Position numbers and translations under genes: made by a program. Below, piece after piece: positions 698 through 37,804 of a stretch of DNA of 37,804 bases. The stretch lies in IMG/VR virus record IMGVR_UViG_2565956716_000007; one strand, written 5' to 3'. The notes beneath the pieces were generated by a model. The model saw only the letters and a list, made by a program, of their open reading frames with translations, was not told the origin of the DNA and searched no databases. Source of the stretch: a virus (taxonomy: Duplodnaviria > Heunggongvirae > Uroviricota > Caudoviricetes). Each line of letters starts with the position of its first letter. Position 1 is the stretch's first letter.

Positions 698-1060
698 GGG
701 GCTGATTCTGGATTCGACGGGATTTGCGAAACCCAAGGTGCATGCCGAGGGGCGGTTGGCCTCGTAAAAAGCCGCAAAAAATAGTCGCAAACGACGAAAA
801 CTACGCTTTAGCAGCTTAATAACCTGCTTAGAGCCCTCTCTCCCTAGCCTCCGCTCTTAGGACGGGGATCAAGAGAGGTCAAAGCCAAAAGAGATCGCGT
901 GGAAGCCCTGCCTGGGGTTGAAGCGTTAAAACTTAATCAGGCTAGTTTGTTAGTGGCGTGTCCGTCCGCAGCTGGCAAGCGAATGTAAAGACTGACTAAG
1001 CATGTAGTACCGAGGATGTAGGAATTTCGGACGCGGGTTCAACTCCCGCCAGCTCCACCA
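698..1060 (+). ncRNA. ssrA: transfer-messenger RNA (tmRNA, SsrA)
   Basis: Starts GGGGCTGATTCTGGATTCGACGGG and ends with the tRNA-like acceptor/T-arm ...GGTTCAACTCCCGCCAGCTCCACCA; 363 nt, matching the E. coli ssrA layout. Confidence 0.95.
1016..1060 (+). repeat. 45-bp att core (ssrA 3' end), left copy
   Basis: ATGTAGGAATTTCGGACGCGGGTTCAACTCCCGCCAGCTCCACCA recurs identically at 34159..34203. Confidence 0.75.
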
Positions 1061-1070
1061 AATAAATCAA

Positions 1071-1103
1071 GGGGTTACGTGAAAGCGTAGCCCCTTTTTC
1101 TTT
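1071..1103 (+). terminator. rho-independent terminator downstream of ssrA
   Basis: GGGGTTACG-tgaaag-CGTAGCCCC stem-loop followed by TTTTTCTTT. Confidence 0.6.
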
Positions 1104-1183
1104 AGTAGTGGCGGCAAAATGGCGACAGACTTTTGCGTCCATCTTGCCTGTCGCCATCTTGAAATCATGCAAAGAGGTTTCAC

Positions 1184-1666
1184 ATGGAAGAACTTCACTT
1201 TGTTTACATCAATGCAAATGGTCGTATCGGTGTTCACTCTATACAGAGCATCAGTTATAGCGAAAATCATATACAGGGCATTTGTAAGAACACCGATCGA
1301 ATAAAAACCTTCCGAAAAGACCGCATTCTTAAACAGTACGATTCACCAGAACAAGCCATTCAGGAGTGCGCGTCATTCCTCCCCGAAAACTACTCACATC
1401 TCACCAAGCAGTCTGGTCCGAAAAAAAATACATTCGATGTGTGTTTCACCGGATTTAAGAAAGCAGATAAAGAAAGATTGGTTGATAAGGCGAATGAACA
1501 AGGATTAACGGTAAGAACCTCTGTAACCCAAAGCCTTCAGATGCTCTGTTGCGGTTACAATGCAGGCCCATCAAAAGTATCGGCAGCCAGGATGAAAGGC
1601 ACAATCATCATAGATGAGCCTGGCTTTATACATTTTCTTGAAACGGGTGAGATCCCAGATGAATAA
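1184..1666 (+). CDS. hypothetical protein with C-terminal BRCT-like domain (prophage cargo between att and ogr)
   Basis: 160-aa ORF with AGAGG RBS about 8 nt upstream; C-terminal ~75 aa (FDVCFTGF...GLTV...GPSKVSAARMKGTIIIDEPGFIHFL) follows the BRCT pattern seen in the LigA C-terminus; lower G+C than flanks by eye. Confidence 0.6.
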   Translation: MEELHFVYINANGRIGVHSIQSISYSENHIQGICKNTDRIKTFRKDRILKQYDSPEQAIQECASFLPENYSHLTKQSGPKKNTFDVCFTGFKKADKERLVDKANEQGLTVRTSVTQSLQMLCCGYNAGPSKVSAARMKGTIIIDEPGFIHFLETGEIPDE

Positions 1667-1667
1667 A

Positions 1668-1694
1668 AACCTGCCGTAGCAGGTTCTCTTTCTC
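1668..1694 (+). terminator. hairpin terminator between the BRCT-like ORF and ogr (probably bidirectional)
   Basis: Perfect 7-bp inverted repeat AACCTGC-cgta-GCAGGTT followed by CTCTTTCTC; A-run on the other side. Confidence 0.45.
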
Positions 1695-1911
1695 AAAAAT
1701 TCATATGCCCCTGACCACCTGGCAATGGATGTGGAGGAGCAGTAGCAATCAGTGCGGGTGTCACAATAAACCGGACCACTGTTTCATGGGTAACAAAAGT
1801 ACTCCCGCAGTTAATATTTTGGCACTGGCAGTAACGCTCTTTGGTGCTTTCAGTTACTTGAAAACTGCTCCTTGTGTGTGCCGCATGACCACACTTTGGA
1901 CAATTCATCAT
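1693..1911 (-). CDS. ogr: Ogr/Delta-family zinc-finger late-gene activator
   Basis: 72 aa from the internal Met (MMNCPKCGHAAH...CQCQNINC), the Cys4 signature and length of P2 Ogr; adjacent to gene D as in P2. Confidence 0.85.
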   Translation of the reverse strand: MMNCPKCGHAAHTRSSFQVTESTKERYCQCQNINCGSTFVTHETVVRFIVTPALIATAPPHPLPGGQGHMNF

Positions 1912-1979
1912 ATCCAGATCCCTACCTTTGCTATCAGAATCATTGTAATGATACACAAAATATCAATATTGAGAACACT

Positions 1980-3080
1980 TTATTCCATTTCAAGATCATC
2001 AATCTTCACTTCGAGTTCAATACTGGTTGTAAAACCGTTATCCGGGCTGACGGTATGTGTCAGAGTCGTAATGGTCCATTCCGCATCATCTATCGGCTGT
2101 TTAAAACCACTGACCTTCACAGGCATTTCCGTGTAGAGATCTGCCCGCCCTTCCGCCAGTTGTAGCGAGAATGACGCAACGCCACGTTGCAGGCGTTCCC
2201 ACTGCATTTTCGCTGCCCGTTCAGCGTTGCTCCGGTTGGCATAAGTGCGATTAAGTACCAGCACGTTTTCATCCGTCCCCACCAGGTAATCGCCCTGCTT
2301 CGCTTCCGGCTCTTTCTTCTGCTTCTTAGTCCTGCGCTTACGCTTCACCGTAGTGCTTTCTTTCTTCGCGGGTTCGCGGGTATGCAACCAGCTGGCAATT
2401 ACCCCCGTGTAAGCTCCGCGATCTGCCAGGGTAAAGCGGTGACTGTCGCCGTCCTTACGTGTGATAGTAATCACCGGCAGTGGTTTACCGCTGGCGCTTT
2501 TGCCCTGTCCCTGCCGGATGAATAACAGATTGCCATTTTTCACCGATGCAATGGCACCGTACTGGCGCGCCAGCCGCATCAAAAAACTGCCGTCACTCTC
2601 ATTAGTCTGGTCTATATGCTCCACGGGCTTATCCGACAGGTCTTTACCCAGTGCCATCTTCAGCTTGTGCCGCGCGGCTATTTCCTTCACCACTTCCCCG
2701 ATGGTGGTGTTATGCCACGATTTTTCACGGCGGGTATTCAGCGTTTCCCGAAAATCAGCACTTCGCGCCCGGATAGTCAGGCGGTCCGGTGCGCCAGTGT
2801 GTTCAATCTCGTCCACCGTGAATGCCCCTTTCGGGAAAAGCGGCTGCCCCTTCCAGCCCAGCGCCAGCGTAATGACCGCACCACGGCGCGGCAGCACGAT
2901 TTTTCCGTCGGCGTCGTCCAGCTCCAGATCAAGCTGGTCCGCTTCAAAGCCCCGATTGTCCGTCAGCGTCAGACTCATCAGGCGGTTATCCAGCACAGTG
3001 GTGATATCCTTCCCCTCAATACTGATGCTGAATGCGGGAGTTTTGTTTCCTTTGTTAAGCAGTTCAGAGCTGAAATTCAC
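1980..3080 (-). CDS. D: tail protein gpD (P2 D-like)
   Basis: 366-aa ORF at the P2 gene D position (after U, before ogr); overlaps U by 4 nt. Confidence 0.8.
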   Translation of the reverse strand: MNFSSELLNKGNKTPAFSISIEGKDITTVLDNRLMSLTLTDNRGFEADQLDLELDDADGKIVLPRRGAVITLALGWKGQPLFPKGAFTVDEIEHTGAPDRLTIRARSADFRETLNTRREKSWHNTTIGEVVKEIAARHKLKMALGKDLSDKPVEHIDQTNESDGSFLMRLARQYGAIASVKNGNLLFIRQGQGKSASGKPLPVITITRKDGDSHRFTLADRGAYTGVIASWLHTREPAKKESTTVKRKRRTKKQKKEPEAKQGDYLVGTDENVLVLNRTYANRSNAERAAKMQWERLQRGVASFSLQLAEGRADLYTEMPVKVSGFKQPIDDAEWTITTLTHTVSPDNGFTTSIELEVKIDDLEME

Positions 3081-3562
3081 GACAGCAGCCCTCCCACCGT
3101 TTTACTGATATCGCTTAAGGCAGACGTTGCCGTGTCCTGCAGATTATTCAGTTGAGTACTGAGATCACCGAACATATCGGACAGGGATTCATCCACCCGT
3201 TTTAGCGAAAGGGTGAACTCAATCCTGCGCGGCATACCGTCGCGGAAAAACTCCGTTTTAGTCTGATTCAGTCCCTCAATCACATACATGCCGTAAATCG
3301 TGCCGCTGCCTTCAATCAGGGGCCATGCTTTCCCCTGTTCTGCCATCTGCTCCAGTGCCAGCAACGACAGCCTGCCGCCTGTTATCTCCGGCATAAGAAC
3401 ACCGGAAAGCGTCAGCATGTCGTTTTCCGGTCCCAGAAACTGCGTGGACGGACGACGGTTTACCCGGCTGTTTGCCGCATGTCGCCAGCTGCGTTGATAC
3501 TGCAGTTCCTGATACGGAACGGTGCGCAGCATAAACACGTACAATCCCAGCACCATCATCAT
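3077..3562 (-). CDS. U: tail protein gpU
   Basis: 161-aa ORF with P2 U-like size and position, translationally coupled to T and D. Confidence 0.75.
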   Translation of the reverse strand: MMMVLGLYVFMLRTVPYQELQYQRSWRHAANSRVNRRPSTQFLGPENDMLTLSGVLMPEITGGRLSLLALEQMAEQGKAWPLIEGSGTIYGMYVIEGLNQTKTEFFRDGMPRRIEFTLSLKRVDESLSDMFGDLSTQLNNLQDTATSALSDISKTVGGLLS

Positions 3563-6500
3563 GCGTCGTATCCCCCCTGATCGCTGTAGTTACTCCTGGC
3601 TTTTGCCTTCAGCCTGCGTTCACGTTCATCAAGCTGGCGTGCCACCTCCCGCGCAATATCCTGCGCACTTTGTCCTGGCTGCGTCTGAATGATGATCTGC
3701 GTCGGTGCCTCAATCCGTTGAACGAGCGGCACAGTGGCTGCGCGACTCACAATTGCTTCTCCACCTTTCGCGGGAAGTGCCAAAGGGTGCAACGGTGGAA
3801 GCTCTGCTGGCGCGGCAGCAACGCCCATCATTCCGGCAACAACGGCAGCCAGTGCAGCTGTATTTCTCCGGCTGGTCACATTTGCCGGGCCGTTAACAAT
3901 TTCCGGCCCGTTTTCACCGACGATGCCAAACTGCCCACGCGGGATATAGCCGCCGCTGTCATACATCCCCGCAAAGCCATATCCCCATGACGGAAAACCA
4001 CCCGATGGCATCATCACTTTACCGTCTGCATTCACCGTCGCAGGTTGCTGACGCGTCACGCTTTCCGGCAGTTTCGCCTTTGCAGCCTCTTTACTGACAA
4101 TGCCGAGTTTATCCAGCAACCAGGAAACGCCAGATTTCAGGGAGTCCAGCGGATGCATAACCATATTCAGCCCTTCCGCCAGTGCCTCCCCGAATCGTCG
4201 CCCCATTGCCGCTGCGCTCTGCAGTTCGGCAGAGGTCGACTTAACGGGCGTCAGCAGATCAGTAAACCAGCCCCACAGCGCCTGCACTTTGTCACCAATC
4301 CACTGGAACACAGGCTTAAGCGGTTCGAACGCTGCACTGATGGGACCTGCCGCCGCTTTGAATCCTTCCACCACGCCACCGAGAAATGCGGTGATGGGTT
4401 GCCAGTATTTCCAGACAACCAGTGCCACACCCGCCAGTGCAGTAACCACAAGACCTATCGGACTGAGCAAAGCACCTAACAGACCAGATACGGCATACAG
4501 GGCAACGCGCAACATCGCCAGTGGACCAGATGCCAGTACTCGCAGCACCGTGCCTGCGGCAGCCAGCCCGCCGCGCAGTACCGCCAGAGGATTCATAAAC
4601 ATCACAGCAACAGCACGTAAAGCGGATAATCCAGACCGCAATAGTGCAACCGGCGCACCTGCTACAGTTTTCAGGACATTTCCCGTCAGTGATGCCGTAC
4701 GGCGCAAAGACGACAACGGCGCAGTAAGTAAACCCGCTGCGTTACCCGATGAAGCAAGCCCGCGTCGCAGCACTGCCAGTGGAGCGCCAGCCAGCCAGGA
4801 CAACGCGCTGCTAGTTCGTGTTACTGCTGCCATAACGGAAGGTAACGTTTTGATGCCCAGCACAGAGAATCCCAGACGGATGACTGCCAGCGGCCCCAGC
4901 ACTGCAGCCAGCGCCACAGCCAGGGTGCCGAGGCCTACGGTAACCGCAGCCACAATAGCGGCTACTTTCATCAGTGTGCCCGTCAGTTCCGGGTTAGCTT
5001 CCACCCAGCGACGCAACGCTCCCGTAACGCTTTTCACCGTGTACAGAATATCCATCAGCGGCTGGCGCAGCGTTTCGCCCAGGCTGCTGAAGGTATTCTG
5101 CGCTCCGGTTTTAACCAGCAACCACTGAGCAGAAAGTGAGTCCTTGTTGATGTCGGATTCTTTCTGCATGGAACCGAGCGCATCATTGCCCGCTGTCAGT
5201 TTTAGCTGGCGCTGTAGTTCCGGCAGGTTGTTTGCCAGTTTCGCCGCGTCATCGCCAAACTCTTTACCAAACAACATGGTCATGGCAGACAGACGCTTGT
5301 CCTGCGGCAGTGCGTTCACCTTCTCCAGCACACGCTGGATAGTTCCCATCGCATCCTTCGTCATCTGCTTTTCAATCACTTCAGGATTGAGTTTCAGCAG
5401 ATTCATCCCTTCAAAGAAACTCTTGCTTTGCATGGTGGCAATGGACAATTCACGCACCATCGCGTTGGCAGCACTGGCAGCGACCTCCGGCGCAGCCCCC
5501 AGTGTCAGGAAGGTGGAACCCAGCGCCGCCGCTTTACGATAATCCAGACGATCAGCCACACCGCCCAGGCGTTGCATGACATCAATGATGTCTGCCCCTT
5601 TCGACATAGCGTTATCATCCAGATAGTTCAGCGCATCACCGAGCTGTTCAATATTGCGGGTTGGTATTTTGTAGAGCTGGGCGATTTTCCCCAGACTTTC
5701 TGACAGTTCATCCGCTGGCAGCTCAAAGGCTGTTGCCGCCTTTGCTGCCGTACTGGCGAAGGCCAGCAGGTCACGTTTCTGGTCCTCCCAGCTGCCGTCA
5801 GGGTTTGCCACATTCATGCGCGCACCACCTTCAACCAGTGCGGCGAAGTCCACAGCACCGTTTTCCATTGGCAGCTGTTCACTGGCAGCTTTGATGGCAT
5901 CCTGCATTTCGTAAAAACGCGCAGTGCGGTTGCCATTATCGTCACGCAGACCATTGACCTGCTTTGCCACACCTTTCATGGCATCTTCCATGCTGGTATA
6001 GCTTTTTACCGCCGCCATCACTGGCGCGCCCATTGCCAGCCCTGCAGCCGTGGTGGTGGCTCCGGCTCCTGCGATGCGATCGCGCACTTCAAGCCGTCTT
6101 GAGTATTGTTCTCTGGCAGCGTTCATCCGTGCCTGTTGTTCACCCAGACGTTTAAGTGCTTTTTGCTGGCCCTCCAGTGCCTGACGAGTTTCTTCGGCAT
6201 TTTTCTTAAGTTCTCGCTGGGCACTACTGAGTTGTCTGGTATCAATCCCTGATTCTTTAAGTGCCTGACGTTGTCTCTGGACCGCCCCCAACAAGCCGTT
6301 ATAGGTCTGCTGAAGTTCCTGTACTCGTGTTTTGGCCTGACTGAATAACTTTGCCTGCGCGGCGGTTGGCCTGTTAGTGGCAGCAAATTGTGTGGCGAGT
6401 TTTGCCGCCTCTTCGCGGGCTGCGTTCAGGTTGTTGGCTGTTATGGCTAGTTGCGAGCGCGTCTTGCGAAATTCATCAATTCTGCCAGCCTGCTTATTCA

Positions 6501-6636
6501 GTTCTTTGAGGCTGTTTCGGGTATTCTGAATTGCGCCAGCCAGCTCTTTCGAACTGGCCTGTGCAGCACGGAATGGGCGGGTGAGTTTGTCAACCGCATT
6601 AAGAATGACCTGCAGGCGCAGGTTATTATCACTCAT
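3559..6636 (-). CDS. T: tail tape measure protein gpT
   Basis: 1025-aa ORF with coiled-coil-rich N-terminal half and hydrophobic tandem repeats (PLAVLRxGLxxxG); follows E/E' as in P2. Confidence 0.85.
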   Translation of the reverse strand: MSDNNLRLQVILNAVDKLTRPFRAAQASSKELAGAIQNTRNSLKELNKQAGRIDEFRKTRSQLAITANNLNAAREEAAKLATQFAATNRPTAAQAKLFSQAKTRVQELQQTYNGLLGAVQRQRQALKESGIDTRQLSSAQRELKKNAEETRQALEGQQKALKRLGEQQARMNAAREQYSRRLEVRDRIAGAGATTTAAGLAMGAPVMAAVKSYTSMEDAMKGVAKQVNGLRDDNGNRTARFYEMQDAIKAASEQLPMENGAVDFAALVEGGARMNVANPDGSWEDQKRDLLAFASTAAKAATAFELPADELSESLGKIAQLYKIPTRNIEQLGDALNYLDDNAMSKGADIIDVMQRLGGVADRLDYRKAAALGSTFLTLGAAPEVAASAANAMVRELSIATMQSKSFFEGMNLLKLNPEVIEKQMTKDAMGTIQRVLEKVNALPQDKRLSAMTMLFGKEFGDDAAKLANNLPELQRQLKLTAGNDALGSMQKESDINKDSLSAQWLLVKTGAQNTFSSLGETLRQPLMDILYTVKSVTGALRRWVEANPELTGTLMKVAAIVAAVTVGLGTLAVALAAVLGPLAVIRLGFSVLGIKTLPSVMAAVTRTSSALSWLAGAPLAVLRRGLASSGNAAGLLTAPLSSLRRTASLTGNVLKTVAGAPVALLRSGLSALRAVAVMFMNPLAVLRGGLAAAGTVLRVLASGPLAMLRVALYAVSGLLGALLSPIGLVVTALAGVALVVWKYWQPITAFLGGVVEGFKAAAGPISAAFEPLKPVFQWIGDKVQALWGWFTDLLTPVKSTSAELQSAAAMGRRFGEALAEGLNMVMHPLDSLKSGVSWLLDKLGIVSKEAAKAKLPESVTRQQPATVNADGKVMMPSGGFPSWGYGFAGMYDSGGYIPRGQFGIVGENGPEIVNGPANVTSRRNTAALAAVVAGMMGVAAAPAELPPLHPLALPAKGGEAIVSRAATVPLVQRIEAPTQIIIQTQPGQSAQDIAREVARQLDERERRLKAKARSNYSDQGGYDA

Positions 6637-7065
6637 CGTTGGCCCCGCTTCTCTGAATCGCTTTATACCGCCATTCCAGCACTTCGGTCAGCGGCATAAC
6701 GTCAGTAACGGATGGCGGCCAGTGAAAGATGGTGGCGATATCAGCCACCAGATCGTCAACCGTCAGGCTGTCGGTAAACCGGCAAGCACCGACTTCTTCA
6801 ACAAAAAAGTGACAACCTCAACCGACATGGCAGTGAGATCTGCCGGGTCCATCTCTGCAATTTCCTGTGCAGTCAGTGCCGGACTGGAGATGCGGGGGAT
6901 CACGGTCATCATCGCGTTCACATCCATATCCATAATGGCCTGCAGGCGTGTACCGCGCAGCGCACCGGACTGCGGTTTACGCAGCACAATTTCGGTGATT
7001 TCTGTTTTACCGCGCTTGATGGGGGTATCCAGTTGAATAGTCTTTTCAGTCTGCTTATCGCTCAT
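6629..7065 (-). CDS. gpE+E' tail assembly chaperone (programmed -1 frameshift product)
   Basis: After a -1 slip at T TTT TTG the reading frame stays open for 57 codons and stops at a TGA overlapping the T start codon, the P2 E/E' arrangement. Confidence 0.5.
6763..7065 (-). CDS. E: tail assembly chaperone gpE
   Basis: 100-aa ORF between FII and T; contains the slippery heptamer near its 3' end. Confidence 0.75.
   Translation of the reverse strand: MSDKQTEKTIQLDTPIKRGKTEITEIVLRKPQSGALRGTRLQAIMDMDVNAMMTVIPRISSPALTAQEIAEMDPADLTAMSVEVVTFLLKKSVLAGLPTA
6802..6808 (-). promoter_or_regulatory. slippery heptamer TTTTTTG for the E/E' -1 frameshift
   Basis: Minus-strand T TTT TTG in the zero frame of E (codons F87-L88). 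Confidence 0.55.
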
Positions 7066-7119
7066 TTTGCTGTCCTGTAAATTGGGTTCTGGCGCGGTAT
7101 CCCGCGCCGTTCAGATACA

Positions 7120-7635
7120 TCAGAGGCCGAGGGCGTTGCGGTGCGCTTCCATCAGGTCCACACCGTCCACAATTTCCACCATGTTGATAAGGTCCACTTC
7201 ATAGAGCACCTCACCATTTATAGTCAGCTTCGCGTAGCTGTTGGTACTGGTCACTTTGGTGGTGTTGCTTTCGCCCGTCTTCCACTCGCCGGAATCCACT
7301 TCTTTGTGACGTCCACGCACCACAAGCTCCACGGCCTGCACTTCCCCGGTATCGTCACGCTGGATAGAGCCGGTAAAGCGCAGCTGGATACCATCCACCG
7401 TGGCTTTGCCCATCTGCTTAAACAGCAGCAGTTCAGTACCACCAATGGAAAATTCCGTATCCAGTGCGCCGTCATCCAGCCCCAGATCCACATCCACTGC
7501 ACCCGGCATTCCGCCGCCGCGATACTTCTCATATTTGCGGGTAAATTTCGGCAGCGTCAGCGACTCAACGATCCCCTGCCAGTTGTTCCCGTCATTAAAC
7601 AGGTTCAGGTGTTTTAATTTGCGTGGTAAAGCCAT
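7120..7635 (-). CDS. FII: tail tube protein gpFII
   Basis: 171-aa ORF directly downstream of the sheath gene; P2 FII-like size. Confidence 0.85.
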   Translation of the reverse strand: MALPRKLKHLNLFNDGNNWQGIVESLTLPKFTRKYEKYRGGGMPGAVDVDLGLDDGALDTEFSIGGTELLLFKQMGKATVDGIQLRFTGSIQRDDTGEVQAVELVVRGRHKEVDSGEWKTGESNTTKVTSTNSYAKLTINGEVLYEVDLINMVEIVDGVDLMEAHRNALGL

Positions 7636-7644
7636 GTTGTCCCC

Positions 7645-8817
7645 TTACGCGCTGACCTGGCTGGAGAAATTCACCAGGTACTGATCGGTGATGCGCTGAC
7701 GCAGCATCAGGTTTTCAAGTGGCGGCACTGGCGTGTAGTCGTAGTCGATGGTGAGTTTTCCGGCTTTCAGCGTGTCTTTGTCGTTCACCGACTCATCCAG
7801 CCAGCAATCACCACCAATGAGATAGCCCTGACTGACCAGGCTGCGCATTTTGGCGCGGATACCCTCGATAATGTCGCGGGCCAGCGACGGATTCAGCGGT
7901 TTATCCACCGCCCACATGTGCGCTTCTGCCATCGTGTCCGTCAGCACCTGCGCCGTGCGGGTGTAGTTTTCGAAGGCAAAGAGCGGGTCATCACTCAGGC
8001 AGCGGGAACCCCAGAAGCGAAAACCGTCTTTGCGGATAAGGGTGGTGACGTCGTTCTGGTTCAGCAGTCCCGCATCGGTTGCCGGGTCCTGCAGATCCCA
8101 GAACACATCAGCAGAAATTCCGGTGACACCGTTAACGCCCACGTTGGACAGGCTTTTGTGCCATCCGGTCTGCTCGTCAATTTTGGCGCGCAGACCAAGC
8201 GCACGGGCGGTGGCATAAGCCGTTGCTTCGGCATTCAGCACCGTGTCCCAGCCAGTAAAGTCGGGCCAGATCAGCATTCCTTCACGCTGACTGAAGTTTT
8301 CACGGTAAGTGATTGCTTCCTGCACTGTCTTGCAACCATACGCTGACAGGTAAGCAAATCCACGCAGGCTTTGCGCCACGCTCAGCAACTCAGTAGCTAC
8401 CGCCTTCGTGTCGTGACCTGGCACGCCGAGAATGCGCGGTTTAACGCCGAGCTGTGACTGGGCAGATAACAGGGCTTTCATGCCTGTTTTTTTACCTTCA
8501 GCGGTCACTGCTCCGATGATATTGGTCGTGGTTTCTTCTTCCGTTTCACCCTGCGGCACACGCACAACAACGGTCACGGGTTTTGCCTGGTCAGCGATGG
8601 CATCCAGCGAACGAGCCAGCGTGCCTGACTCACCCGCTTTACCGCTGGCAGTCAGCACATCAGTGATCAGCACGGGTTTATTAAGAGGAAACATTTTTGC
8701 ATCGGCATCATCGCCCGTGCAGACCATACCCACGATGGCGGTGCTCACCGTGGTAATGGATCGGGTGCCTTCGTTGACTTCAACAACGCGCACCCCGTGG
8801 TGGTAATCCTGAGCCAT
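7645..8817 (-). CDS. FI: contractile tail sheath protein gpFI
   Basis: 390-aa ORF, first gene of the FI-FII-E-T-U-D block; P2 FI-like size. Confidence 0.88.
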
Positions 8818-8893
8818 AGTGGCGAACCTCCTGATTGGATTAGGCTTCGCCCTATGTTGAAGTGATTGTGCCTGACAAACAGCTAAGCGCAGT

Positions 8894-8911
8894 TGTACCG
8901 TTATTCACACA
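8894..8911 (-). promoter_or_regulatory. candidate Ogr-dependent late promoter element (TGT-N12-ACA) upstream of FI
   Basis: TGTaccgttattcacACA centred about 85 bp upstream of the FI start codon. Confidence 0.45.
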
Positions 8912-8959
8912 AAATGACGGTATTTGTCTGCTTTCAGGGATAATCAAAATAAAGCTGAT

Positions 8960-9526: not shown

Positions 9527-9581
9527 GATCATCCCCCTGAATAAAAACCGGAGATGATGCCAGTTAGCCGTTATCTCTGCA

Positions 9582-9937: not shown

Positions 9938-9939
9938 CC

Positions 9940-10774: not shown

Positions 10775-10795
10775 TTTTCACTCCATATAGCTAAA

Positions 10796-29122: not shown

Positions 29123-29361
29123 TAGTGGATCTCCTGCGCTTCGTTCTGGATTGCTTCAGCAGTTACACGCAGTAGTTCTGCTGCTTCGACGTGGTTTAGC
29201 TGGCGGGATGTGATATGACACGCCAGGCTATCAAGGCGAGCTGCCATTGCTTCAGCCCTTGCCCGGCGTTCTTCCAGACGAGCCTCTGTCAGTAAAATAT
29301 TAAGCCCTGCATCATCCGGTCCGGTTTTAGTCGTGAGGGTTTCAATATTACGCATAATCAA
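29122..29361 (-). CDS. hypothetical early protein
   Basis: 79-aa ORF translationally coupled to the downstream gene. Confidence 0.45.
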   Translation of the reverse strand: MIMRNIETLTTKTGPDDAGLNILLTEARLEERRARAEAMAARLDSLACHITSRQLNHVEAAELLRVTAEAIQNEAQEIH

Positions 29362-29422
29362 TTCTCCTGAATTTAGATAAAGGGATACCCGGCGGGTTTA
29401 CGCCATTAATTTCATTAGTTGG

Positions 29423-29764
29423 TTAATTCGGCATGGTTAGCCGTCTGGGAAATAAGCTCACCACTGCACGAAAATGATTCATTGCTTTAATCAACTCCCG
29501 CTTTTCGTCAGTGGTCAGCTCATTAATGCTGATGCTATGACGTTCAGCTGGAATTTTTGCCATAAAGAATATAGCAGCCAGTGCCCGTTTATTTTGTTCG
29601 TTATTGATATCCCGTGGATCACGCATATCTTTAATAAACCGCTCAAGCTCTGACTCAATATTCAGGCCAAATACTTTCGCCCTTAACTCCGCAATATGGT
29701 TAAGTCCATTCAGGCGTTCACCGGGGCTTAATGGAACAGTCGCCGCAGCGCCTTCAATAGCCAT
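29423..29764 (-). CDS. hypothetical early protein
   Basis: 113-aa ORF in the early operon; true start uncertain. Confidence 0.4.
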   Translation of the reverse strand: MAIEGAAATVPLSPGERLNGLNHIAELRAKVFGLNIESELERFIKDMRDPRDINNEQNKRALAAIFFMAKIPAERHSISINELTTDEKRELIKAMNHFRAVVSLFPRRLTMPN

Positions 29765-29958
29765 TTGTTCCCCCGTTTTTTCGTAGATAGTTCTGCCAGC
29801 AATTCATCTTGTGAACGGCACGGATGCCAGCGTTTACCATCCTCCCCCATGATCCAGCCGTGACCGTAGTGCATTGCCGGGCTTTGTTTTACCAGCAGCG
29901 ATGCAAATGATGGTTCTTTCGTCAGCATAAGCACCTCACAGCAAACCGAATGACGCAC
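29728..29958 (-). CDS. hypothetical early protein
   Basis: 76-aa ORF overlapping the cII 3' end; true start uncertain. Confidence 0.35.
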   Translation of the reverse strand: MRHSVCCEVLMLTKEPSFASLLVKQSPAMHYGHGWIMGEDGKRWHPCRSQDELLAELSTKKRGNKWLLKALRRLFH

Positions 29959-30445
29959 CGAGGCCAGTTACAGTATCAACTGCACTTGCCATCGCAGGAT
30001 TAGCCTGTAAACGGGCCTGCAATGAAACAGCCGCCAGCGCCATCAGTCGTGTTACAGAGTTAATGCTGCTGATAGCATCACGACGACCTGCACTGGTTTT
30101 TACATCGCCAGATACCGCACCTGCAGCAACACGCCCGATCTCTGCAGTTGCACTCATGACGTAATGCGGCAGTTTCTCTTTTGCCACCTCATTAATCGGA
30201 ACACATGGCAGACAATGAATCTGTGCCAGAAAACCGTCTACCAACGTTGAATCTTCAGTCAGATCGGTAAGCAACCAGATTTCTGGTGCGGTGAGCTGAT
30301 GCGGTTGATCTGGATTGAGTTTGTTTCGCAGTGTCTGAACATTCATTCCTGCACGTTCTGCCAGCTTTGCCATATTGTGACGTAGTGCAAAAGCTCTACA
30401 GGCTTCATCAAAATGCGGATGTTTGGAAATCTTGTAATCAAACAT
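29936..30445 (-). CDS. cII: CII-like lysogeny establishment regulator
   Basis: 169 aa, the length of 186 CII; N-terminal HTH region; directly downstream of apl. Confidence 0.7.
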   Translation of the reverse strand: MFDYKISKHPHFDEACRAFALRHNMAKLAERAGMNVQTLRNKLNPDQPHQLTAPEIWLLTDLTEDSTLVDGFLAQIHCLPCVPINEVAKEKLPHYVMSATAEIGRVAAGAVSGDVKTSAGRRDAISSINSVTRLMALAAVSLQARLQANPAMASAVDTVTGLGASFGLL

Positions 30446-30477
30446 GCTGCCCCCTTAGAAAGTTCTCATAATTGAAC

Positions 30478-30726
30478 TTAGTCACCAACGATGACATTAA
30501 AGTTGAAATTGGATTGGCCCATGTTTTTCCTGACTTGTTCCTTTTTGTACTCAAGGTAACGTATACATACTCTGTCTTTCGGTTTTTCTTTTCTTTCCAA
30601 GAATTTAGCGAGTTTACCATTATGAATCATTTGATATACCGAACCGCGAGAGCGGCCTTCCCATTCCGCGAACTCAGCTGGTGTCGCCATCACTTTTGGT
30701 ACACGAATTGAAATGTCGTTGCTCAT
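30478..30726 (-). CDS. apl: Apl/Cox-like excisionase and lytic regulator
   Basis: 82-aa HTH protein, first gene of the lytic operon, divergent from cI. Confidence 0.7.
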   Translation of the reverse strand: MSNDISIRVPKVMATPAEFAEWEGRSRGSVYQMIHNGKLAKFLERKEKPKDRVCIRYLEYKKEQVRKNMGQSNFNFNVIVGD

Positions 30727-30785
30727 AGTGCAGTATCTCTCGATTAAGGTTTGGTTTACGTCGTTTTATCTTGTTTTATTTGATT

Positions 30786-30828
30786 CAATATTTGATACAC
30801 CAAGATACTACGATCCAATATTTGATAC
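30786..30828. promoter_or_regulatory. operator-like direct repeats in the cI/apl switch region
   Basis: CAATATTTGATAC occurs twice, 30 bp apart (30786..30798 and 30816..30828), between the divergent apl and cI genes. Confidence 0.4.
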
Positions 30829-30845
30829 GTCAACAGGGTTAAAAA

Positions 30846-31478
30846 ATGATACAAGTAAAAGCTGGCGAGAATACAGGGGGAAGAGAGGCTATCCATAGGC
30901 TAATGGCAGCCTATGATTTCAAGTCCAGACAGCAACTTTGCGATCACTTGGGCGCATCAAAAAGCACTATGGCAAACAGATACTTAAGAGATAGTTTTCC
31001 TGCAGAATGGGTGATTCAGTGCGCTTTGGAAACAGGAGTTTCTTTACTGTGGCTAACTACCGGACAGGGCGATCCAGGTTCAAACATTGACCCTAAAAAA
31101 AATATCAATTCCGTGAACTCTAGCAAAGTTAAACCTCTTTCGGAGCTTGTATCTCCTGAAATTGACAAGGCAACTCTCAACGGAGGTTTGCTGATCGATG
31201 CTGGAAAAGCAATCATTGATAGCAGCATACTCCCCTCAGACTCAAGCAACCTGCTGCTGGTGACTACTTCTGGTGATTCTTATTTAATAGATCGCAACCA
31301 AACACCACCAGTAAATGGTACGTGGTTAGTGGACATCGACGGGATAAAAAGCATTGTAAAATTGACACGACTCCCGGGAAACAGATTAGTAGTGCATCAG
31401 GATGATTCATCGTTTGAGTGCGAACTGGATGACATTGAGGTAATAGGCCGCGCACTGAAAATCATTAAGAGCCTTTGA
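30846..31478 (+). CDS. cI: CI-like immunity repressor
   Basis: 210-aa ORF divergent from apl and followed by int (186 layout); true start may be an internal Met. Confidence 0.7.
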   Translation: MIQVKAGENTGGREAIHRLMAAYDFKSRQQLCDHLGASKSTMANRYLRDSFPAEWVIQCALETGVSLLWLTTGQGDPGSNIDPKKNINSVNSSKVKPLSELVSPEIDKATLNGGLLIDAGKAIIDSSILPSDSSNLLLVTTSGDSYLIDRNQTPPVNGTWLVDIDGIKSIVKLTRLPGNRLVVHQDDSSFECELDDIEVIGRALKIIKSL

Positions 31479-31479
31479 T

Positions 31480-32493
31480 ATGACCATCAGAAAACAGCCG
31501 AACGGAAAGTGGTTATGTGAATGCTACCCAAACGGGCGAGATGGCAAACGCGTACGCAAACAATTTGCGACGAAAGGCGAAGCCATTGCGTTTGAGAATT
31601 TCACCATGGACGAGGTAAACAAGAAACCTTGGCTGGGAGAAAAGGAAGATCGGCGACACCTATCAGAATTAATTGAGCTGTGGTATTCCCTGTATGGTCA
31701 AACACTCGCAGACCCCAAGCGACTCATGGCGAAACTTGGAATTATCTGTAATGGTCTGGGCGATCCCATCGCTTCAGAGCTGACTGCCGGTGACTTTACG
31801 AAATACCGCGAAGCACGGCTAAAAGGTGAAGTGCGAAATGAAGATGGCACGCTGATGTCGCCCGTTAAGCCCCGCACGGTAAACCTTGAACAGCGCAATC
31901 TATCATCTGTGTTCGGTACATTAAAAAAACTAGGACACTGGTCAGCACCAAACCCGCTGGCAGGACTTCCGACCTTCAAAATTGCCGAAGGTGAGCTGGC
32001 TTTTCTTTCCACGGACGAAATCAAGCGCCTGTTGGCGGCATGTGCTGAATCTCAAAGCCCTAGCTTACTAATGATTGCAAAAATATGCCTGGCTACTGGC
32101 GCACGGTGGAGTGAAGCCGAAAATCTGCAGGGCCATCAAATATCGAAATACCGAATTACTTATACAAAAACAAAAGGCAAGAAAAACCGTACTGTGCCGA
32201 TATCTCAGGATCTGTATGATGAACTCCCCAAAAACAGAGGAAAGTTATTCACGCCATGCAGAAAAGCCTTTGAGCGGGCAGTAAAGCGGGCCGGTATTGA
32301 CCTACCGGAGGGCCAATGCACCCACGTGCTTCGCCATACATTCGCCAGTCACTTTATGATGAACGGCGGAAACATACTGGTACTGCGTGATATTTTGGGT
32401 CATGCCGATATAAAAATGACCATGATTTACGCCCACTTTTCGCCCGATCACCTTGAAGACGCGGTGACTAAAAATCCTCTTTATAATTTGTAG
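31480..32493 (+). CDS. int: tyrosine integrase (P2/186 Int family)
   Basis: 337-aa ORF with C-terminal catalytic region HVLRHTFASHF...LGHADIKMTMIYAH. Confidence 0.9.
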   Translation: MTIRKQPNGKWLCECYPNGRDGKRVRKQFATKGEAIAFENFTMDEVNKKPWLGEKEDRRHLSELIELWYSLYGQTLADPKRLMAKLGIICNGLGDPIASELTAGDFTKYREARLKGEVRNEDGTLMSPVKPRTVNLEQRNLSSVFGTLKKLGHWSAPNPLAGLPTFKIAEGELAFLSTDEIKRLLAACAESQSPSLLMIAKICLATGARWSEAENLQGHQISKYRITYTKTKGKKNRTVPISQDLYDELPKNRGKLFTPCRKAFERAVKRAGIDLPEGQCTHVLRHTFASHFMMNGGNILVLRDILGHADIKMTMIYAHFSPDHLEDAVTKNPLYNL

Positions 32494-32505
32494 TGGAGAC
32501 CTATT

Positions 32506-34026
32506 GTGATTCAAAAATTAGATATTCAATCTGATGCGGTTGCAAAGTTAAGAATGGATGCTATTCGTTCAGAAATCCAAGGTTATTCCCCTGATTTATT
32601 TATCGAATTCTGTATGCAATATAACTTACAAAAATTTGAAGATAATATCCACATGTTACGACACATGCCTTGGATTGTTAATTTATGTCTAAAGTGGTCT
32701 GCGTCAGTAACTGGCAAGAATAAAAAATTCAAAATCCTCGATAAAAATCAAGCAATAAAACTCTTCCAAAAAACTTATGAAACCTTGAACATTATTCCTA
32801 TCGGTCTTGAGAGGAAGAATGGCATGCATTTCTTCATTAGAAATAATCTATACCAACAAGGAATCTACCAGAAAATTGACGCTCTAAACACAATTAGCAG
32901 ACAAGTCTTTCTATTTTCAGAACTTGAAAAAAACCATAAAATAAAGACAAGTTTTTTTACTATCACGAATGTATCTATCGAAGACTTTCTTAAGCTATCT
33001 TACATATTAATAACTCACATAACAGAAGAGCATCCCGTGAGAAAAATGAATGTAGATACATTTACTATATTATTTGACATCATTCCTAGAAATACCATTG
33101 AGAAATTTCTTGATGCAATATCAATAAATTACAATGAACTATCTACATTTTGCAAATCAAAAACCTATGATAAACCTTTGCTTGAATACTACTCATCATC
33201 ACCTTTCCTTGAAAAACCATTAATAAAAAAAGGTTCAGAGTATTTTCAGATACACACACAACTGACTTCAACAAGCATACAGACGTTCATATATGATCTT
33301 TTAAGAAGAACTGATGCCGAGAAGTTCATGGATAGCTTTGGAAATGTATTTGAAAATGCACTGGAATTAATACTAAAAGAAAGCGAAATTGATTTTCATA
33401 ACGAAAAATACCTTAAAGAACGACTACCTAAAGATAATAAAGTAGTTGATTATTTCATTCCACATACTGAGGCAAATATTTTCATTGATGCTAAAGGCGT
33501 TGAGATACACCAAAAAGGCATGGTAACATTACGCCCTGAGGATATTGCAGGAAAAATAAAGAAATCGGTATTAAAAGCAATCGAACAATCTCACGAAGTT
33601 AATCGAGAAATATACTCTAATGAGCGAATAATAGCTCCATTCAGGGCTAACTCATATATCATTTGCATTACATATAAAAACCTTTTCTTAGGCAATGGTA
33701 GTATCCTAGCTAATACTTATGCTAAAGATGAGATGAATAAGATATATGACAAGTTTAAACATAACTATCATATCCCTACAGAGAATATTTTTTGTCTATC
33801 ATTTGAAGAGTTTGAATATCTCATTGCATCATGCAAAAGGTTTAAAATTCCGCCTCATGAAGTCTTGCAATCTGCAGTTGAAAAGAACAAAAAACCATCA
33901 AGTGCTGCTTTCCTATTTTCCCACCATATAGAAGACTATTTTGATAGAGTAGTCAATTCAGTCATAGTCAATGAGGCAGGCATTAAAATGGTAGATTCTA
34001 TTATCAATAAATTAAAGCCTGAATAA
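32506..34026 (+). CDS. hypothetical protein with PD-(D/E)xK-like nuclease motif (AT-rich cargo between int and att)
   Basis: 506-aa ORF with GTG start and GGAG 7 nt upstream; strongly AT-rich; FENALELIL...VVDYFIP...IFIDAKG resembles E / D / D-x-K nuclease motifs. Confidence 0.7.
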   Translation: MIQKLDIQSDAVAKLRMDAIRSEIQGYSPDLFIEFCMQYNLQKFEDNIHMLRHMPWIVNLCLKWSASVTGKNKKFKILDKNQAIKLFQKTYETLNIIPIGLERKNGMHFFIRNNLYQQGIYQKIDALNTISRQVFLFSELEKNHKIKTSFFTITNVSIEDFLKLSYILITHITEEHPVRKMNVDTFTILFDIIPRNTIEKFLDAISINYNELSTFCKSKTYDKPLLEYYSSSPFLEKPLIKKGSEYFQIHTQLTSTSIQTFIYDLLRRTDAEKFMDSFGNVFENALELILKESEIDFHNEKYLKERLPKDNKVVDYFIPHTEANIFIDAKGVEIHQKGMVTLRPEDIAGKIKKSVLKAIEQSHEVNREIYSNERIIAPFRANSYIICITYKNLFLGNGSILANTYAKDEMNKIYDKFKHNYHIPTENIFCLSFEEFEYLIASCKRFKIPPHEVLQSAVEKNKKPSSAAFLFSHHIEDYFDRVVNSVIVNEAGIKMVDSIINKLKPE

Positions 34027-34158
34027 GTCTCCCAAGCAAAACCAGTGGCGGCATTTTGGCGGCAGAGCATTAAAAATGCGTAAAACAGACAAACACAAAA
34101 TAATACTAACATACTGATTTTAAACATAAGTTCATGTTTTTGTTATAGTAAAAATGGT

Positions 34159-34203
34159 ATGTAGGAATTTCGGACGCGGGTTCAACTCCCGCCAGCTCCA
34201 CCA
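34159..34203 (+). repeat. 45-bp att core (ssrA 3' end), right copy
   Basis: Exact copy of 1016..1060; flanks diverge immediately on both sides. Confidence 0.75.
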
Positions 34204-34330
34204 ATCATGATTGGACGGTATAAGGACAACACCAATAAAAACAGGAAGTTAGCAGTCTCAGCAGGACACCGACCAGACGGTGAAGAGACATAAAAGGATA
34301 CGCAAAGGAGCCGCGGCTCCTGGTGACATG

Positions 34331-34355
34331 AAAGCCCACAGATGTGGGCTTTTTC
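34331..34355 (+). terminator. rho-independent terminator-like hairpin
   Basis: AGCCCACA-gat-GTGGGCT followed by TTTTT. Confidence 0.4.
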
Positions 34356-34363
34356 GTTGATGG

Positions 34364-37027
34364 TCAGAACGACCAGTTCACACCAGCTACCCCGTTCCAC
34401 GGGGATTCCACACCGGCACCATGGCTATACCCCACCCCAAGATGCCCGCTTAACGTACTGCTGAATGAGGCTTTAATACCTGCCTGGTATATTCCACGTC
34501 TGCCCGACAAATCATTGACGAAATTACCGTCACTATTCACTTTCACCCGGTTATCATCGACAAATTCTTTGCGCACAGCCGCCTTCAGCCACGGCTCAAC
34601 TTCCATACCGTTCCCCAGACGCATGTTGTAACTCAGCGTTGCACCCAGTTCACGATATAAACTGCGGGTATCGACTGATTTCGATTCCATGCCATTGGAT
34701 AAATGATATTCAGGGTTATCAGCGGTGAACCCCCGTTAACGATGCATACGGCGTCAGGTTCCAGTTACCATCGGTAAATCGCATCCCGGTTTCAATGTGA
34801 CCGCCCAGCCCGTTGCTGCGATAACTGCCGTTGGCGGCTCCACCGCTGCCAACCGTGGAGTCGCGAGCTTCGGTACCTGCTAATACCAATAAATTACCGC
34901 CATTTTCCAGCAACATATTGGTCGCTAAATTGCCGGAAATGGAAAAAGTGCCGTACTGGTGAGTACCGCTGATTTCAATACCGTTACCATAATTCTGAAC
35001 GGTTTGCGTGCCACCATTGATGTGTGTTTTCTCTGTTGACCCACCATCAACAATTTGTTCACCACTTTCGATATTTGCCTCAGTGGCTAATCCATATACC
35101 GTTTGCTTGCCACCTTTGATATTTGCTTTATCAGAAGTGGCACTGGCATATATTGTTTGGGTGCCAGCACTATTGAGTACAGTGCCAACATCTTTTCCAT
35201 AAACATCCATTTTGCCGTTGGCATTAATAATCGTATCAACTGCCCGGGAACCAGTGACGACTGTTAATGAGCCAGCGTTTTCCAGCACTACATTTTTAGC
35301 TTCTGAATTCCTGATGTAGAAAGCATCACCATAACTGTTGGTTCCTTCGATAAGGGTTCCGGAAGTTGTGGAAGCAATTAATGCGCCGCCGGATTGTTGC
35401 TCAACATGCTTAGCCTCACCACCGTCCTGAACCTCCAGAACGCCACCATTATTAAGTCTGGTGGTATCTGTTTTAGCCTCCTTCTGGACAATCAGCTTAC
35501 CGCCAGCATCAACGGTAGTATTTTTCGCCGAGGTTTTAGCCACTACCGTCAGTTCGCCGGTATTTTCCAGCACAACATAATTAGCCTCCCCTCCGGTAAT
35601 AGTGAAGTGAGAGAGCTTGTTGTATCCTTCAATATCAGTCCCTGCGCCCGTGTTGGCAACTAAAGCACTGCCCGTCTCCTGGTTAACCCCATGTGCAATA
35701 CCACCGGTATAGACAATCAGCGAGCCTCCGGCGCTAATATTGCTGCCAGTTGCCGTACCATCTTTCTCAACAACCTGCCGGCTCCCGGAGGATATAATTG
35801 TCGTGTCAGCTTTCCCGCCGCTCTTGATATTTTGCGTTCCGCCGTTGATATTGGTACCCGTGGCAATACCATGATTATTAATATTCTGTGTACCACCATT
35901 GATTATGGTATTGGTCGCGTTTCCGGTAACATCCATTACCCCGCCGTTATCTATTCGGGTCGCATCAGCTTTAGCATTCGTTAAAACTGACATTGTTCCT
36001 TTATCTTTAATAATCGTCTTGTTTGCCGAACCATATGCGTTTATGTCTAAATGACCACCGTTTTCCAGCAACACATTGTCTGCCACGTGATTGTGGATGG
36101 AGAATGCACCTTCACTATTCGTACCGCTCACCGTCGTACCGTTAGTGTTTGTTTTTAAAATTGCACCATCGTGCTGGGTAACATTTGTTGCCGTACCACC
36201 ACTAACATCAAGCACGCCACCGGAATAAACTTCAATAACATCCGAGGAGCTGGTGTAATCAACAATTTGCGTACCACCAGAATAGATCTGAGTATTTTTG
36301 CCGTTGACTTATTATTCAGAGACTGAGTTCCACCTTCAATCGTCGTGTCCAGCGCATGGCTTTCATATACTCTTTGCTCACCGCCATTTTTAATGGTGGT
36401 TGTTCCTACTGTGCTCTGTTCAACATACTGTCGTCCACCATTTATGATTGTGTTCGTTGCAATACTTCCTTGCGTGATGTCCTGATAACCGGACTTATTT
36501 ATCGTTGTACCATCAACATGCCCCTGAGTTGTTACTTTCTGCCCTCCACCATCAATGATGGTTCCATTCGCAGTCCCCCCACTTATGTGTGAATTACCAC
36601 CCTTAATTGTCGTTCCATTGCTGATACCACCTGTATAAACGTCCTGATTGCCACTGTCGATTATCGTACCGGTGGAAATGCCCCCGTCATGAATTGTCTG
36701 TCTTCCTCCGTTAATGGTTGTATTATTAGCCTGCCCCACAAAATTGTTATGACTTCCTACATCTTGATATCCACCCGATTCAATAAGACTTCCATTAGAT
36801 ACCCCGCCATGAACATTCTGCTGGCCATGGTTGATAATATGAGTGTTATTTGTTGTACCTCGTTCATCTACTCTTTGGCTGCCATCTACAGTCTCATCGT
36901 TTACCACACCAATAACATCAGGAGTGAAGGCCGTCATCCCAGGCGGGGCATATATCAAGGCAGATATCAATAAGGAAAGTACTGAGCGGCGACAATAATG
37001 GGGACTGGTCCTGTTCATAAATTTCAT
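34364..37027 (-). pseudogene. autotransporter adhesin, frameshifted
   Basis: Three consecutive same-strand ORFs in different frames: extended signal peptide and passenger repeats (36155..37027), passenger repeats (34719..36215), beta-barrel C-terminus ending NWSF (34364..34690). Confidence 0.7.
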
Positions 37028-37287
37028 CCTCTGAAAAGTGAATACTGAGTAGCGTTTAAGCGACCTTAGCTCTGCTGCAACATCAGCCCACAGGCACCAG
37101 ACCAGGGGATTCATCCTGAAGAGACAGCGCAAGTGTATTGTGTTCACCGCTCATCAAAGACATCATGATGAAATGATGATATTCCACATAAGAAAGAAGC
37201 ATTTTTTAAACGCAGTGCGCTGAAGTATGGTTGGATAAAAAAGTCAATCTATTCAGGGAATACGGGGGTATTCTTTTCTTTCGACAA

Positions 37288-37580
37288 TCAGGCCGTCGGC
37301 AAAATAAAATGATTTACATAATCGTTTCTGATGAATATCTTCTGCTCACATAAAAATAACACAATAACTTTGAGATCGCAGATTCTTTTACTTTTACAGC
37401 ATTCGTCCCCCCATTGTTGGGCAAATATAGATTGGGCCAGAGCACGAAAGTTAATACCACGTTTGCACAGCTCCTCCAACAGCACGACAAGATGCCACAT
37501 ACTGCGCCCCAGTCGGTTCGGTTTACAGACTACCCGTGCGTCCACCGCCGATAATGTCCTGAGCAGTTTTTTCAGTCCGG
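37288..37580 (-). pseudogene. serine recombinase (Pin-like invertase) fragment
   Basis: Encodes GLKKLLRTLS...RLGRSMWHLVVLLEELCKRGINFRAL, homologous to the middle of the prophage invertase; no catalytic N-terminus or C-terminal HTH. Confidence 0.55.
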
Positions 37581-37760
37581 ACCTCCTGCCACGGTTTTAC
37601 GTTGAAGAGGTAACCCTGAGCACGCAGTTCATCAGTCAGGCGTGGTGTACCGTAACCCTATTATTGATGGGTAAGATCAAAAAAACTTTCAGGCAGCTAA
37701 GGAAAGTTGAACCAGACATTAGAATAAATATTTCAACCAATTACAGCACCAATTCAGACA

Positions 37761-37804
37761 CCGCCAGCTCAACAAATAAATCAAGGGGTTACGTGAAAGC
37801 GTAG
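37761..37804 (+). repeat. degenerate third copy of ssrA 3' end plus terminator start
   Basis: CCGCCAGCTC-AACAAATAAATCAAGGGGTTACGTGAAAGCGTAG matches 1046..1090 with one deletion and one substitution; truncated by the window edge. Confidence 0.55.

Follow-up and report, generated by a model that had tools for sequence, protein, structure and literature searches.

How many mobile elements have entered ssrA, the gene for transfer-messenger RNA (tmRNA), in the stretch of DNA analysed here, and in which order did they arrive? The stretch, called the window below, comprises all 37,804 nucleotides (nt) of the IMG/VR virus record IMGVR_UViG_2565956716_000007, and it carries the 3′ end of ssrA three times. 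The window is probably the record of three integrations at ssrA, by a CP4-57-type island, an e14-related prophage and a P2-type prophage, of which the older two would have been fused by deletion. It represents the smpB-ssrA locus of E. coli. The features that define the problem are the following, att denoting attachment sites, attL and attR the left and right ones of an integrated element.

1..483, + strand: smpB, the gene conserved to the left of ssrA; an open reading frame (ORF) of 160 amino acids (aa), identical in protein sequence to one annotated or called SmpB in E. coli loci.
698..1060, + strand: ssrA, the intact tmRNA gene (ARAGORN; Rfam RF00023, 294 bits, full length).
1016..1061, + strand: copy 1, the attL core of the P2-type prophage, an exact 46-bp direct repeat with 34159-34204.
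1062..34158, no strand assigned: complete P2-family prophage (Peduoviridae, Elveevirus-like), ~33.1 kb, recognized by Pfam matches and by nucleotide identity to phages.
34159..34204, + strand: copy 2, the attR core of the P2-type prophage, the other member of the exact 46-bp repeat.
37753..37774, + strand: copy 3, a degenerate piece of the ssrA 3′ end, TTCAGACACCGCCAGCTCAACA, that extends from the T-loop to the end of the gene with one base missing.

ARAGORN and Rfam agree on the tmRNA at 698..1060, which encodes the tag ANDENYALAA and covers model positions 1-374; no RNA family other than tmRNA was detected in the window with Rfam. The earlier note on this DNA had described the repeats that bracket the prophage as exact and 45 bp long. 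They are indeed exact and in direct orientation, and their length is 46 bp (1016-1061 and 34159-34204), copy 1 consisting of the last 45 nt of ssrA plus 1 nt. The third copy had been placed at 37761..37804 and said to include the first 30 nt that follow ssrA; these 30 nt of terminator sequence are present, and the ssrA-like part is confined to ~22 nt at 37753-37774, one base shorter than the ssrA segment that was copied. A 23-nt probe from the ssrA 3′ end matches 37753-37775 with 3 substitutions, 1 insertion and 1 deletion, and a repeat finder pairs 1056-1090 with 37770-37804 at 34/35 identical positions (family D15). By our own estimate, the chance expectation for either repeat match in 37.8 kb is far below 1e-9.

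K-12, strain 165 and PCP06235 also carry copy 3 in this position, so that it is no peculiarity of the window; copy 3 is probably the attR core of the oldest element. The expectation that the window stops inside this copy and that more DNA lies beyond is correct, as relatives possess the rest of the terminator followed by ypjCB. In strain 165 the sequence past the window end consists of the rest of the terminator, ypjCB, tRNA-Ile, an amylase pseudogene and glaH.

The element adjacent to ssrA is the P2-type prophage. A phage attachment site (attP) was predicted by joining the flank to the left of attR in the window to the flank to the right of attL. The free phage genome Cartapus matches this predicted attP across the junction in one piece, the contiguous order being integrase gene (int), cargo, P arm, 46-bp ssrA core, terminator, BRCT ORF and ogr. 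Comparison with empty-site ssrA loci of related strains, which the earlier note had proposed as a check, revealed the unoccupied P2-type site in strain 165 and in locus L019, where ssrA is joined directly to the sequence from 34204 onward. The sequence of copy 2 is in strain 165 the 3′ end of the working ssrA and has the same DNA after it. Copy 2 is the original ssrA 3′ end, pushed outward by the phage, and the 3′ part of ssrA now in place is supplied by the prophage. Among 5426 complete E. coli genomes, the set to which all genome counts over 5426 refer, the attL junction occurs in 165 (~3%). The right junction with the cargo type of the window (GapS1, described below) occurs in 10 complete genomes, and the complete genome PCP06235 has the same overall layout as the window. 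The signature employed by Islander is present in full: an intact ssrA at one end, a 3′ fragment in direct orientation at the other end and an integrase inside. The prophage may still be able to excise, and excision would regenerate the junction of ssrA with ATCATGATTGG.

Both arms of this attachment site contain short motifs:

1108..1156, no strand assigned: candidate arm-type integrase sites of the P′ arm, GTGGCGGCAAAATGGCGACAG at 1108-1128 and inverted TGGCGACAG at 1148-1156.
34045..34065, + strand: candidate arm-type integrase sites of the P arm, GTGGCGGCATTTTGGCGGCAG, conserved in the Cartapus attP.

The 21-nt motif pair GTGGCGGCA-N4-TGGCGRCAG is present on both arms, with an extra inverted half-site at 1148-1156. 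The motifs are over-represented with respect to shuffled sequences (5 vs 0.9 and 4 vs 0.7) and are putative arm-type sites for the integrase.

The prophage is assigned to Peduoviridae on the basis of its hallmark genes and of its identity to classified members of that family. Its Pfam matches include Ogr, gpD, tape measure, sheath, tail fibre and P2 capsid, together with large terminase, portal, gpA, 186-type CI repressor and integrase. The hallmark order of P2 is retained: ogr, D, U, T, FII/FI, H and capsid N, followed by terminase P, portal Q, replication A, C/cox and int. With positions 1061-25900 as the query, 82-88% of the length is matched by the phages Cartapus, 500465-1 and Kp48xx-2, at 96-97% identity; Cartapus and 500465-1 are Escherichia phages, and the Kp48xx-2 matches are a set of Klebsiella phages.

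Between copies 2 and 3 lies the old segment of ~3.6 kb. It consists of the remains of ypjA, in three ORFs, and the invertase gene fragment pinH, set between two ends that resemble different elements. Its parts, and the two terminators with which it has to be compared, are as follows.

1061..1105, + strand: phage-borne replacement ssrA terminator, composed of a stem (1069-1096) and a T-run behind it; in Cartapus it directly adjoins the ssrA piece.
34204..34354, + strand: 151-nt block, the left-end arm of the e14-related family of ssrA prophages, with its own terminator hairpin at 34331-34354.
34364..37147, − strand: ypjA, a broken ehaD-type autotransporter adhesin gene (Pfam Autotransporter and AIDA; ypjA in relatives).
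37426..37596, − strand: pinH, an internal fragment of a Pin-type serine invertase, 57 codons corresponding to residues ~38-94 of 184 (Pfam Resolvase; K-12 annotation).
37698..37752, + strand: island-side arm of a CP4-57-type attR, in ungapped, in-register alignment over 55 nt with the arm beside psaA of K-12.
37775..37804, + strand: relic of an older ssrA terminator, identical at 30/30 nt to 1061-1090 and ending at the window edge.

The ypjA ORFs encode 108, 498 and 330 aa. At ~34984..34986, 603 bp are missing in comparison with strain 165 and PCP06235, with 100% identity elsewhere in the flanks; the overlap at the junction, which lies in repeat-rich AIDA sequence, is only 3 nt, and the difference may be either a real deletion or an assembly collapse. 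The GC content of the old segment is 0.44-0.48, as against 0.50 in the first kb of the window. In K-12 the order is CP4-57, psaA (annotated as a 14-nt pseudo-ssrA), 151-nt block, ypjA, pinH, copy 3, terminator, ypjB and ypjC. The ssrA fragment behind pinH is unannotated in the K-12 RefSeq record, in which psaA is annotated, and a literature search on pinH and ypjA returned no description of this third copy.

The right end of the old segment is of CP4-57 type. The arm that precedes copy 3 aligns with the psaA arm with a score of 35, shuffled sequences giving 16.7 ± 2.5 with a maximum of 30; it is similar to the psaA arm only, and comparison with the e14-type and P2-type arms revealed no similarity. 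In K-12 both copy 3 and psaA read GCCAGC-CCACCA, and copy 3 of the window, GCCAGCTCAACA, has the same shortened length. It has been reported that the attR of CP4-57 lacks one acceptor-stem base, the U of the G.U pair (PMC10107115), and that the attR of CP4So in Shewanella lacks the same base (PMC5148205). Excision in these systems drops the U of the G.U pair, whereby the tmRNA is inactivated (PMC10107115; PMC5148205). The stretch 37698..37774 displays each of the attributes of a CP4-57-type attR, namely the homologous arm, the start at the T-loop and the missing base in the acceptor segment. No ORF for a P4-type integrase or an AlpA excisionase was found in 34204-37804, and this right end is a relic, not a functional member of its class.

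The left end is related to e14. In every inspected E. coli locus without a newer element beside ssrA, the 151-nt block follows either ssrA or psaA. It is 91% identical, over ~205-220 nt, to the left end of the prophage in locus L018 and in strain 0-4, and it scores 83 against the left end of the ssrA island in L020, with shuffled sequences at 27 ± 5. The prophage of strain 0-4 (NZ_CP076262; L022 and L023) is complete, e14-related, ~38.7 kb long and integrated at ssrA, its bounds being ssrA itself and a perfect 27-nt ssrA copy; L018 shares this arrangement. Its pinE lies ~2 kb from the prophage left end in the same orientation as pinH. In the old segment only residues ~38-94 of a Pin-type invertase are left, and they may derive from either of two families. 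In tblastn comparison, the amino acid identity of pinH is 68% with pinE of strain 0-4 and 70% with the invertase of the P2-type prophage. The e14-related structural, regulatory and integrase genes, and the attR of that prophage, are absent from the old segment.

In strain 0-4 the e14-related prophage is followed by a P4-type island with a response-regulator and histidine-kinase pair, the two forming a live-looking tandem array. The insertion sequence IS3 truncates this island and has also removed the chromosome from ypjA through part of the amylase pseudogene.

Taken together, the two ends make it most likely that, in the old segment, the remaining left end of an e14-related prophage has fused with the remaining right end of a CP4-57-type island. 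The kind of neighbourhood from which such a fusion would come, a prophage followed by a P4-type island, is that of strain 0-4. The claim of at least two successive integrations at ssrA, made in the earlier note, is borne out by the repeats, the free-phage attP, the unoccupied site and its occupancy counts, and the homologies at both ends of the old segment. The older island was also described there as largely decayed; the decay and the ending at copy 3 are confirmed, whereas the single island resolves into what look like two remnants.

Every element that targets this site brings in its attP a substitute ssrA 3′ end with a terminator, so that a working gene is rebuilt and the old 3′ piece is pushed outward together with all that follows it. 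The proposed history can be set out in four steps. In the first, a CP4-57-type island with a P4-family integrase would have recombined in the T-loop region, leaving copy 3 beside the former terminator. In the second, an e14-related prophage would have entered ssrA, bringing in the 151-nt block, terminator included, and a Pin invertase that lay close to the left end of the prophage. In the third, deletions would have removed both integrases and nearly everything else, resulting in the 3.6-kb fusion with the order 151-nt block, ypjA, pinH fragment, CP4-type arm and copy 3. In the fourth and latest, a P2-family (Elveevirus-like) phage would have recombined its 46-bp core with the working ssrA, generating attL (copy 1 with the phage terminator) and attR (copy 2). 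Newer elements would thus sit closer to ssrA. The P2-type phage must have arrived last because the full 46-bp target exists only in the working gene, copy 3 offering ~22 degenerate nt; this also fits its presence in only 165/5426 genomes. The priority of the CP4-type over the e14-type element is deduced from their positions, and the fusing deletions are likewise conjectural.

Several results weigh against this history. Between copies 2 and 3, ORF, Pfam and att-copy scans revealed no integrase and no internal att copy, which makes the interpretation as two remnants an indirect one. In nucleotide identity pinH stands at 84-85% to the invertase type of strain 0-4 and at 78% to the P2-type invertase, and its derivation from an e14-related element is tentative. 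A query for the precise empty site of the old segment, made of ssrA, the AATAAATC terminator and the ypjCB flank, was matched in 0/5426 genomes. The sole form in which the segment is absent retains the 151-nt block, lacks the DNA past copy 3 and has 333 unexplained nt instead. The boundaries of the old element are drawn from end homology rather than from a clean presence/absence polymorphism.

This short form consists of ssrA, the 151-nt block, the 333 nt and glaH, and it was found in 1100-1104 of the 5426 genomes (~20%). It is without ypjA, pinH, copy 3, ypjCB, tRNA-Ile (ileY) and the amylase pseudogene. The short form is represented by loci L013 and L014 (7061..7544), and sequence type 131 (ST131) and avian pathogenic E. 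coli (APEC) are among the matches listed. No att remnant was detected in the 333 nt, the best local alignment of 26 lying within the shuffle range (maximum 29), and comparison with all examined loci gave no match. The short form is not an excision product. According to the earlier note, its reading would be in difficulty if 34204..37804 were native chromosomal DNA in relatives, with no att-like copy at the distal end. This is not what was observed, as ~1100/5426 genomes are without nearly all of the segment, and the inspected carriers of it (K-12, strain 165 and PCP06235) do have an att-like copy at its distal end.

Among the other explanations, the one that survives best, although it is somewhat unlikely, is that 34204..37774 is the decayed body of a single older island, with the 151-nt block and the CP4-type arm as its two ends. 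Mosaic elements are common, and the DNA from copy 2 to copy 3 contains neither an ssrA fragment nor an integrase remnant that would indicate a boundary. However, the only complete element found to have the 151-nt block, the prophage of strain 0-4, possesses a right arm unrelated to the copy-3 arm (score 16, shuffled sequences 16.6). The copy-3 arm matches CP4-57, the left end of which is different (AAATTCTCC...).

A further question is raised by the terminators, of which the window contains three, namely the phage-borne one, that of the 151-nt block and the relic behind copy 3. The phage-borne hairpin at 1069-1096 has a predicted free energy (dG) of −19.8 kcal/mol (z = −5.3) and was also flagged by a terminator scan; in K-12 and strain 165, where the relic is not cut off, it forms a complete hairpin. 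When 9 sequences drawn from E. coli, Xenorhabdus, Photorhabdus and Arsenophonus are compared, all 108/108 pair positions of the stem are paired, and 3 pairs have changed on both sides. The hairpin stands directly 3′ of an intact ssrA in Xenorhabdus indica and in four Photorhabdus species, and the downstream genes of X. indica are metabolic and non-phage. In a scan of one genome per species, exact matches to the ssrA end with this terminator were found only in Xenorhabdus, Photorhabdus and Arsenophonus; the same exact-pattern scan yielded no Escherichia or Salmonella outgroup with this combination. The distribution fits with copy 3 marking the former end of ssrA as it would have been before any integration.

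In the same bacteria, ~27-nt ssrA fragments of attR type were observed in Photorhabdus luminescens (L008 3103..3170) and Arsenophonus nasoniae (L011). In both cases island DNA stands before the fragment and the conserved terminator after it, and L008 has a gene for a tyrosine integrase immediately upstream of the fragment. Morganellaceae thus show the same layering.

The flank behind copy 3 in strain 165 (L001 10179..10240) matches the phage arm at 1061..1122 over ~62 nt with 2 mismatches. The match does not end with the terminator but continues as far as the first half of the candidate arm site, stopping in the middle of the pair. By our own count, the flanks of strain 165 and K-12 differ over the same stretch by ~5 mismatches, and the strain 165 relic is nearer to the phage arm than the K-12 allele is. 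Either the phages copy extra ancestral flank, or an older phage has left a stump, or there has been exchange between the repeats. It is unlikely that the terminator and GTAGTGGCAGCAAAATGG to the right of copy 3 represent a fourth and older layer, the left-arm stump of an ancient P2-type prophage. The crossing of the phage P′ arm match into half of the candidate arm-site pair, where it stops midway, speaks in favour of such a stump, as do the 2 mismatches between phage and strain 165 over 62 nt when compared with the ~5 between the strain 165 and K-12 flanks. Nevertheless, the hairpin that follows ssrA beside non-phage genes in X. indica may be an ancestral terminator that phages copy, the stretch past the hairpin is short (20 nt), and the function of the arm site is putative. 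The broader proposition that the "native" ssrA terminator is itself phage-derived, whether by a fourth and oldest P2-type integration or by gene conversion in a lysogen between the phage-borne and relic copies, is improbable.

It is very unlikely that copy 3 is no scar at all, in the sense that the ordinary chromosome carries this sequence and a P2-type phage captured the terminator and ~20 nt near ypjB by aberrant excision. The phage and the chromosome do match for ~62 nt past the ssrA piece, with 2 mismatches in strain 165, and the failure to find the precise empty site in any of the 5426 genomes is compatible with such an origin. Yet copy 3 is ssrA-like in the correct register and abuts the terminator, its outer arm is homologous to the attR arm of CP4-57, and its acceptor segment is likewise one base shorter. 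Moreover, the terminator directly follows an intact ssrA in other genera, and the old segment is missing from ~20% of E. coli. That the triple repeat is an artefact of assembly or of the window is barely conceivable: the window does end in copy 3 and 603 bp of repeat-rich ypjA are missing, possibly by assembly collapse, but this candidate was rejected because the independent complete genome PCP06235 has the same layout, the GapS1-type right junction occurs in 10 complete genomes, and both K-12 and strain 165 have copy 3.

Within the P2-type prophage, several genes bear on its cargo and on its likeness to the old segment:

1184..1666, + strand: BRCT-like protein, 160 aa, the first gene past attL.
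8960..9598, − strand: full-length serine invertase of the prophage, beside the tail-fibre genes.
23497..24738, − strand: TIR-domain protein, 413 aa (Pfam CAP12-PCTIR_TIR; PADLOC TIR effector models).
31480..32493, + strand: tyrosine integrase of the prophage (Pfam Int_N and Phage_integrase), in the same position as the Cartapus integrase.
32506..34026, + strand: low-GC cargo gene encoding 506 aa, between the integrase and attR, matching the NCBIfam model of the anti-phage protein GapS1.

The GapS1 match scores 428 bits against an NCBIfam cutoff of 320, and the surrounding 1-kb bins have a GC content of 0.32-0.39; the 506-aa protein has no match in Pfam or PADLOC. Because Cartapus carries a RES-domain gene at this spot, it can be regarded as a swappable cargo position. 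The TIR-domain gene lies in a low-GC pocket adjoining the portal gene Q, and its product is likely to be defence cargo. The BRCT-like protein has weak matches to the C-termini of exonucleases and ligases and to PADLOC PDC-S48. In L016, a related prophage at the same site, a reverse-transcriptase (RVT_1) gene at 7169..7942 takes its place, and the spot of the first gene past attL looks like a second variable cargo position. The prophage invertase suggests an invertible host-range segment. It shares a 134-nt direct repeat (family D1) with pinH (37445..37578), 28 kb away, at 78% nucleotide identity.

Integration into tRNA and tmRNA genes, the displaced 3′ fragments that mark island borders and the tandem arrays that result are textbook knowledge. 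CP4-57 and its att sites have been studied in detail, and sequenced P2-type phages with this attP exist. The locus is a clear but ordinary case of a well-known integration hotspot, current understanding of which is unchanged by these findings. What is added here is that the older part probably consists of two remnants instead of one and that its ends match known elements. The value of the locus lies mainly in annotation and teaching, as it illustrates how a spare 3′ end with a terminator keeps the tmRNA gene functional and how the fragments that are pushed outward accumulate as a legible history of integration. Three integrase types have left identity blocks of 46 bp, ~27 bp and ~22 bp (imperfect) in the same gene. 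The stretch from ypjA to pinH is better read as debris of mobile elements than as core chromosome, and the prophage carries candidate anti-phage cargo (GapS1 and the TIR-domain protein) at positions that differ from related phages. In addition, 62-nt direct repeats would permit the loss of the whole 36.7-kb array in one RecA-mediated step; none of the 5426 complete genomes showed the arrangement that recombination between these repeats would leave.

Among known systems, the tandem arrays catalogued by Islander offer the most general comparison. That survey described 125 arrays of two or more members and found that, of all targets, the tmRNA gene is the most enriched (PMC4383910). As in those arrays, an intact gene is followed in the window by displaced 3′ fragments in direct orientation. 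Islander requires of each array member its own integrase and fragment, however, and the two older layers of the window would fail on this account.

CP4-57 with psaA in K-12 resembles the right end of the old segment in its target ssrA, its homologous 55-nt arm, the start of identity at the T-loop and the acceptor segment that is one base short. It differs in that the window is without the CP4-57 body, intA, alpA and psaA before the 151-nt block. With the e14-related prophage of strain 0-4 the window shares the left 151-nt block, terminator included, and perhaps the invertase of Pin type that lies in the same orientation close to the left end, whereas only the block and a 57-codon fragment are kept and ypjA replaces three hypothetical genes. 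The P2-type prophage has the closest counterparts. Cartapus (Elveevirus) and 500465-1 have its gene order and its integrase, and their attP likewise contains the 46-bp core and terminator; the attP regions of the Salmonella Fels-2 relatives RE2010, SopEPhi and SEN8 are 85-89% identical to the window. The ssrA-integrating P2-type phages differ from it in cargo, the window having GapS1 by int, where Cartapus has a RES-domain gene, and a TIR-domain gene by the portal.

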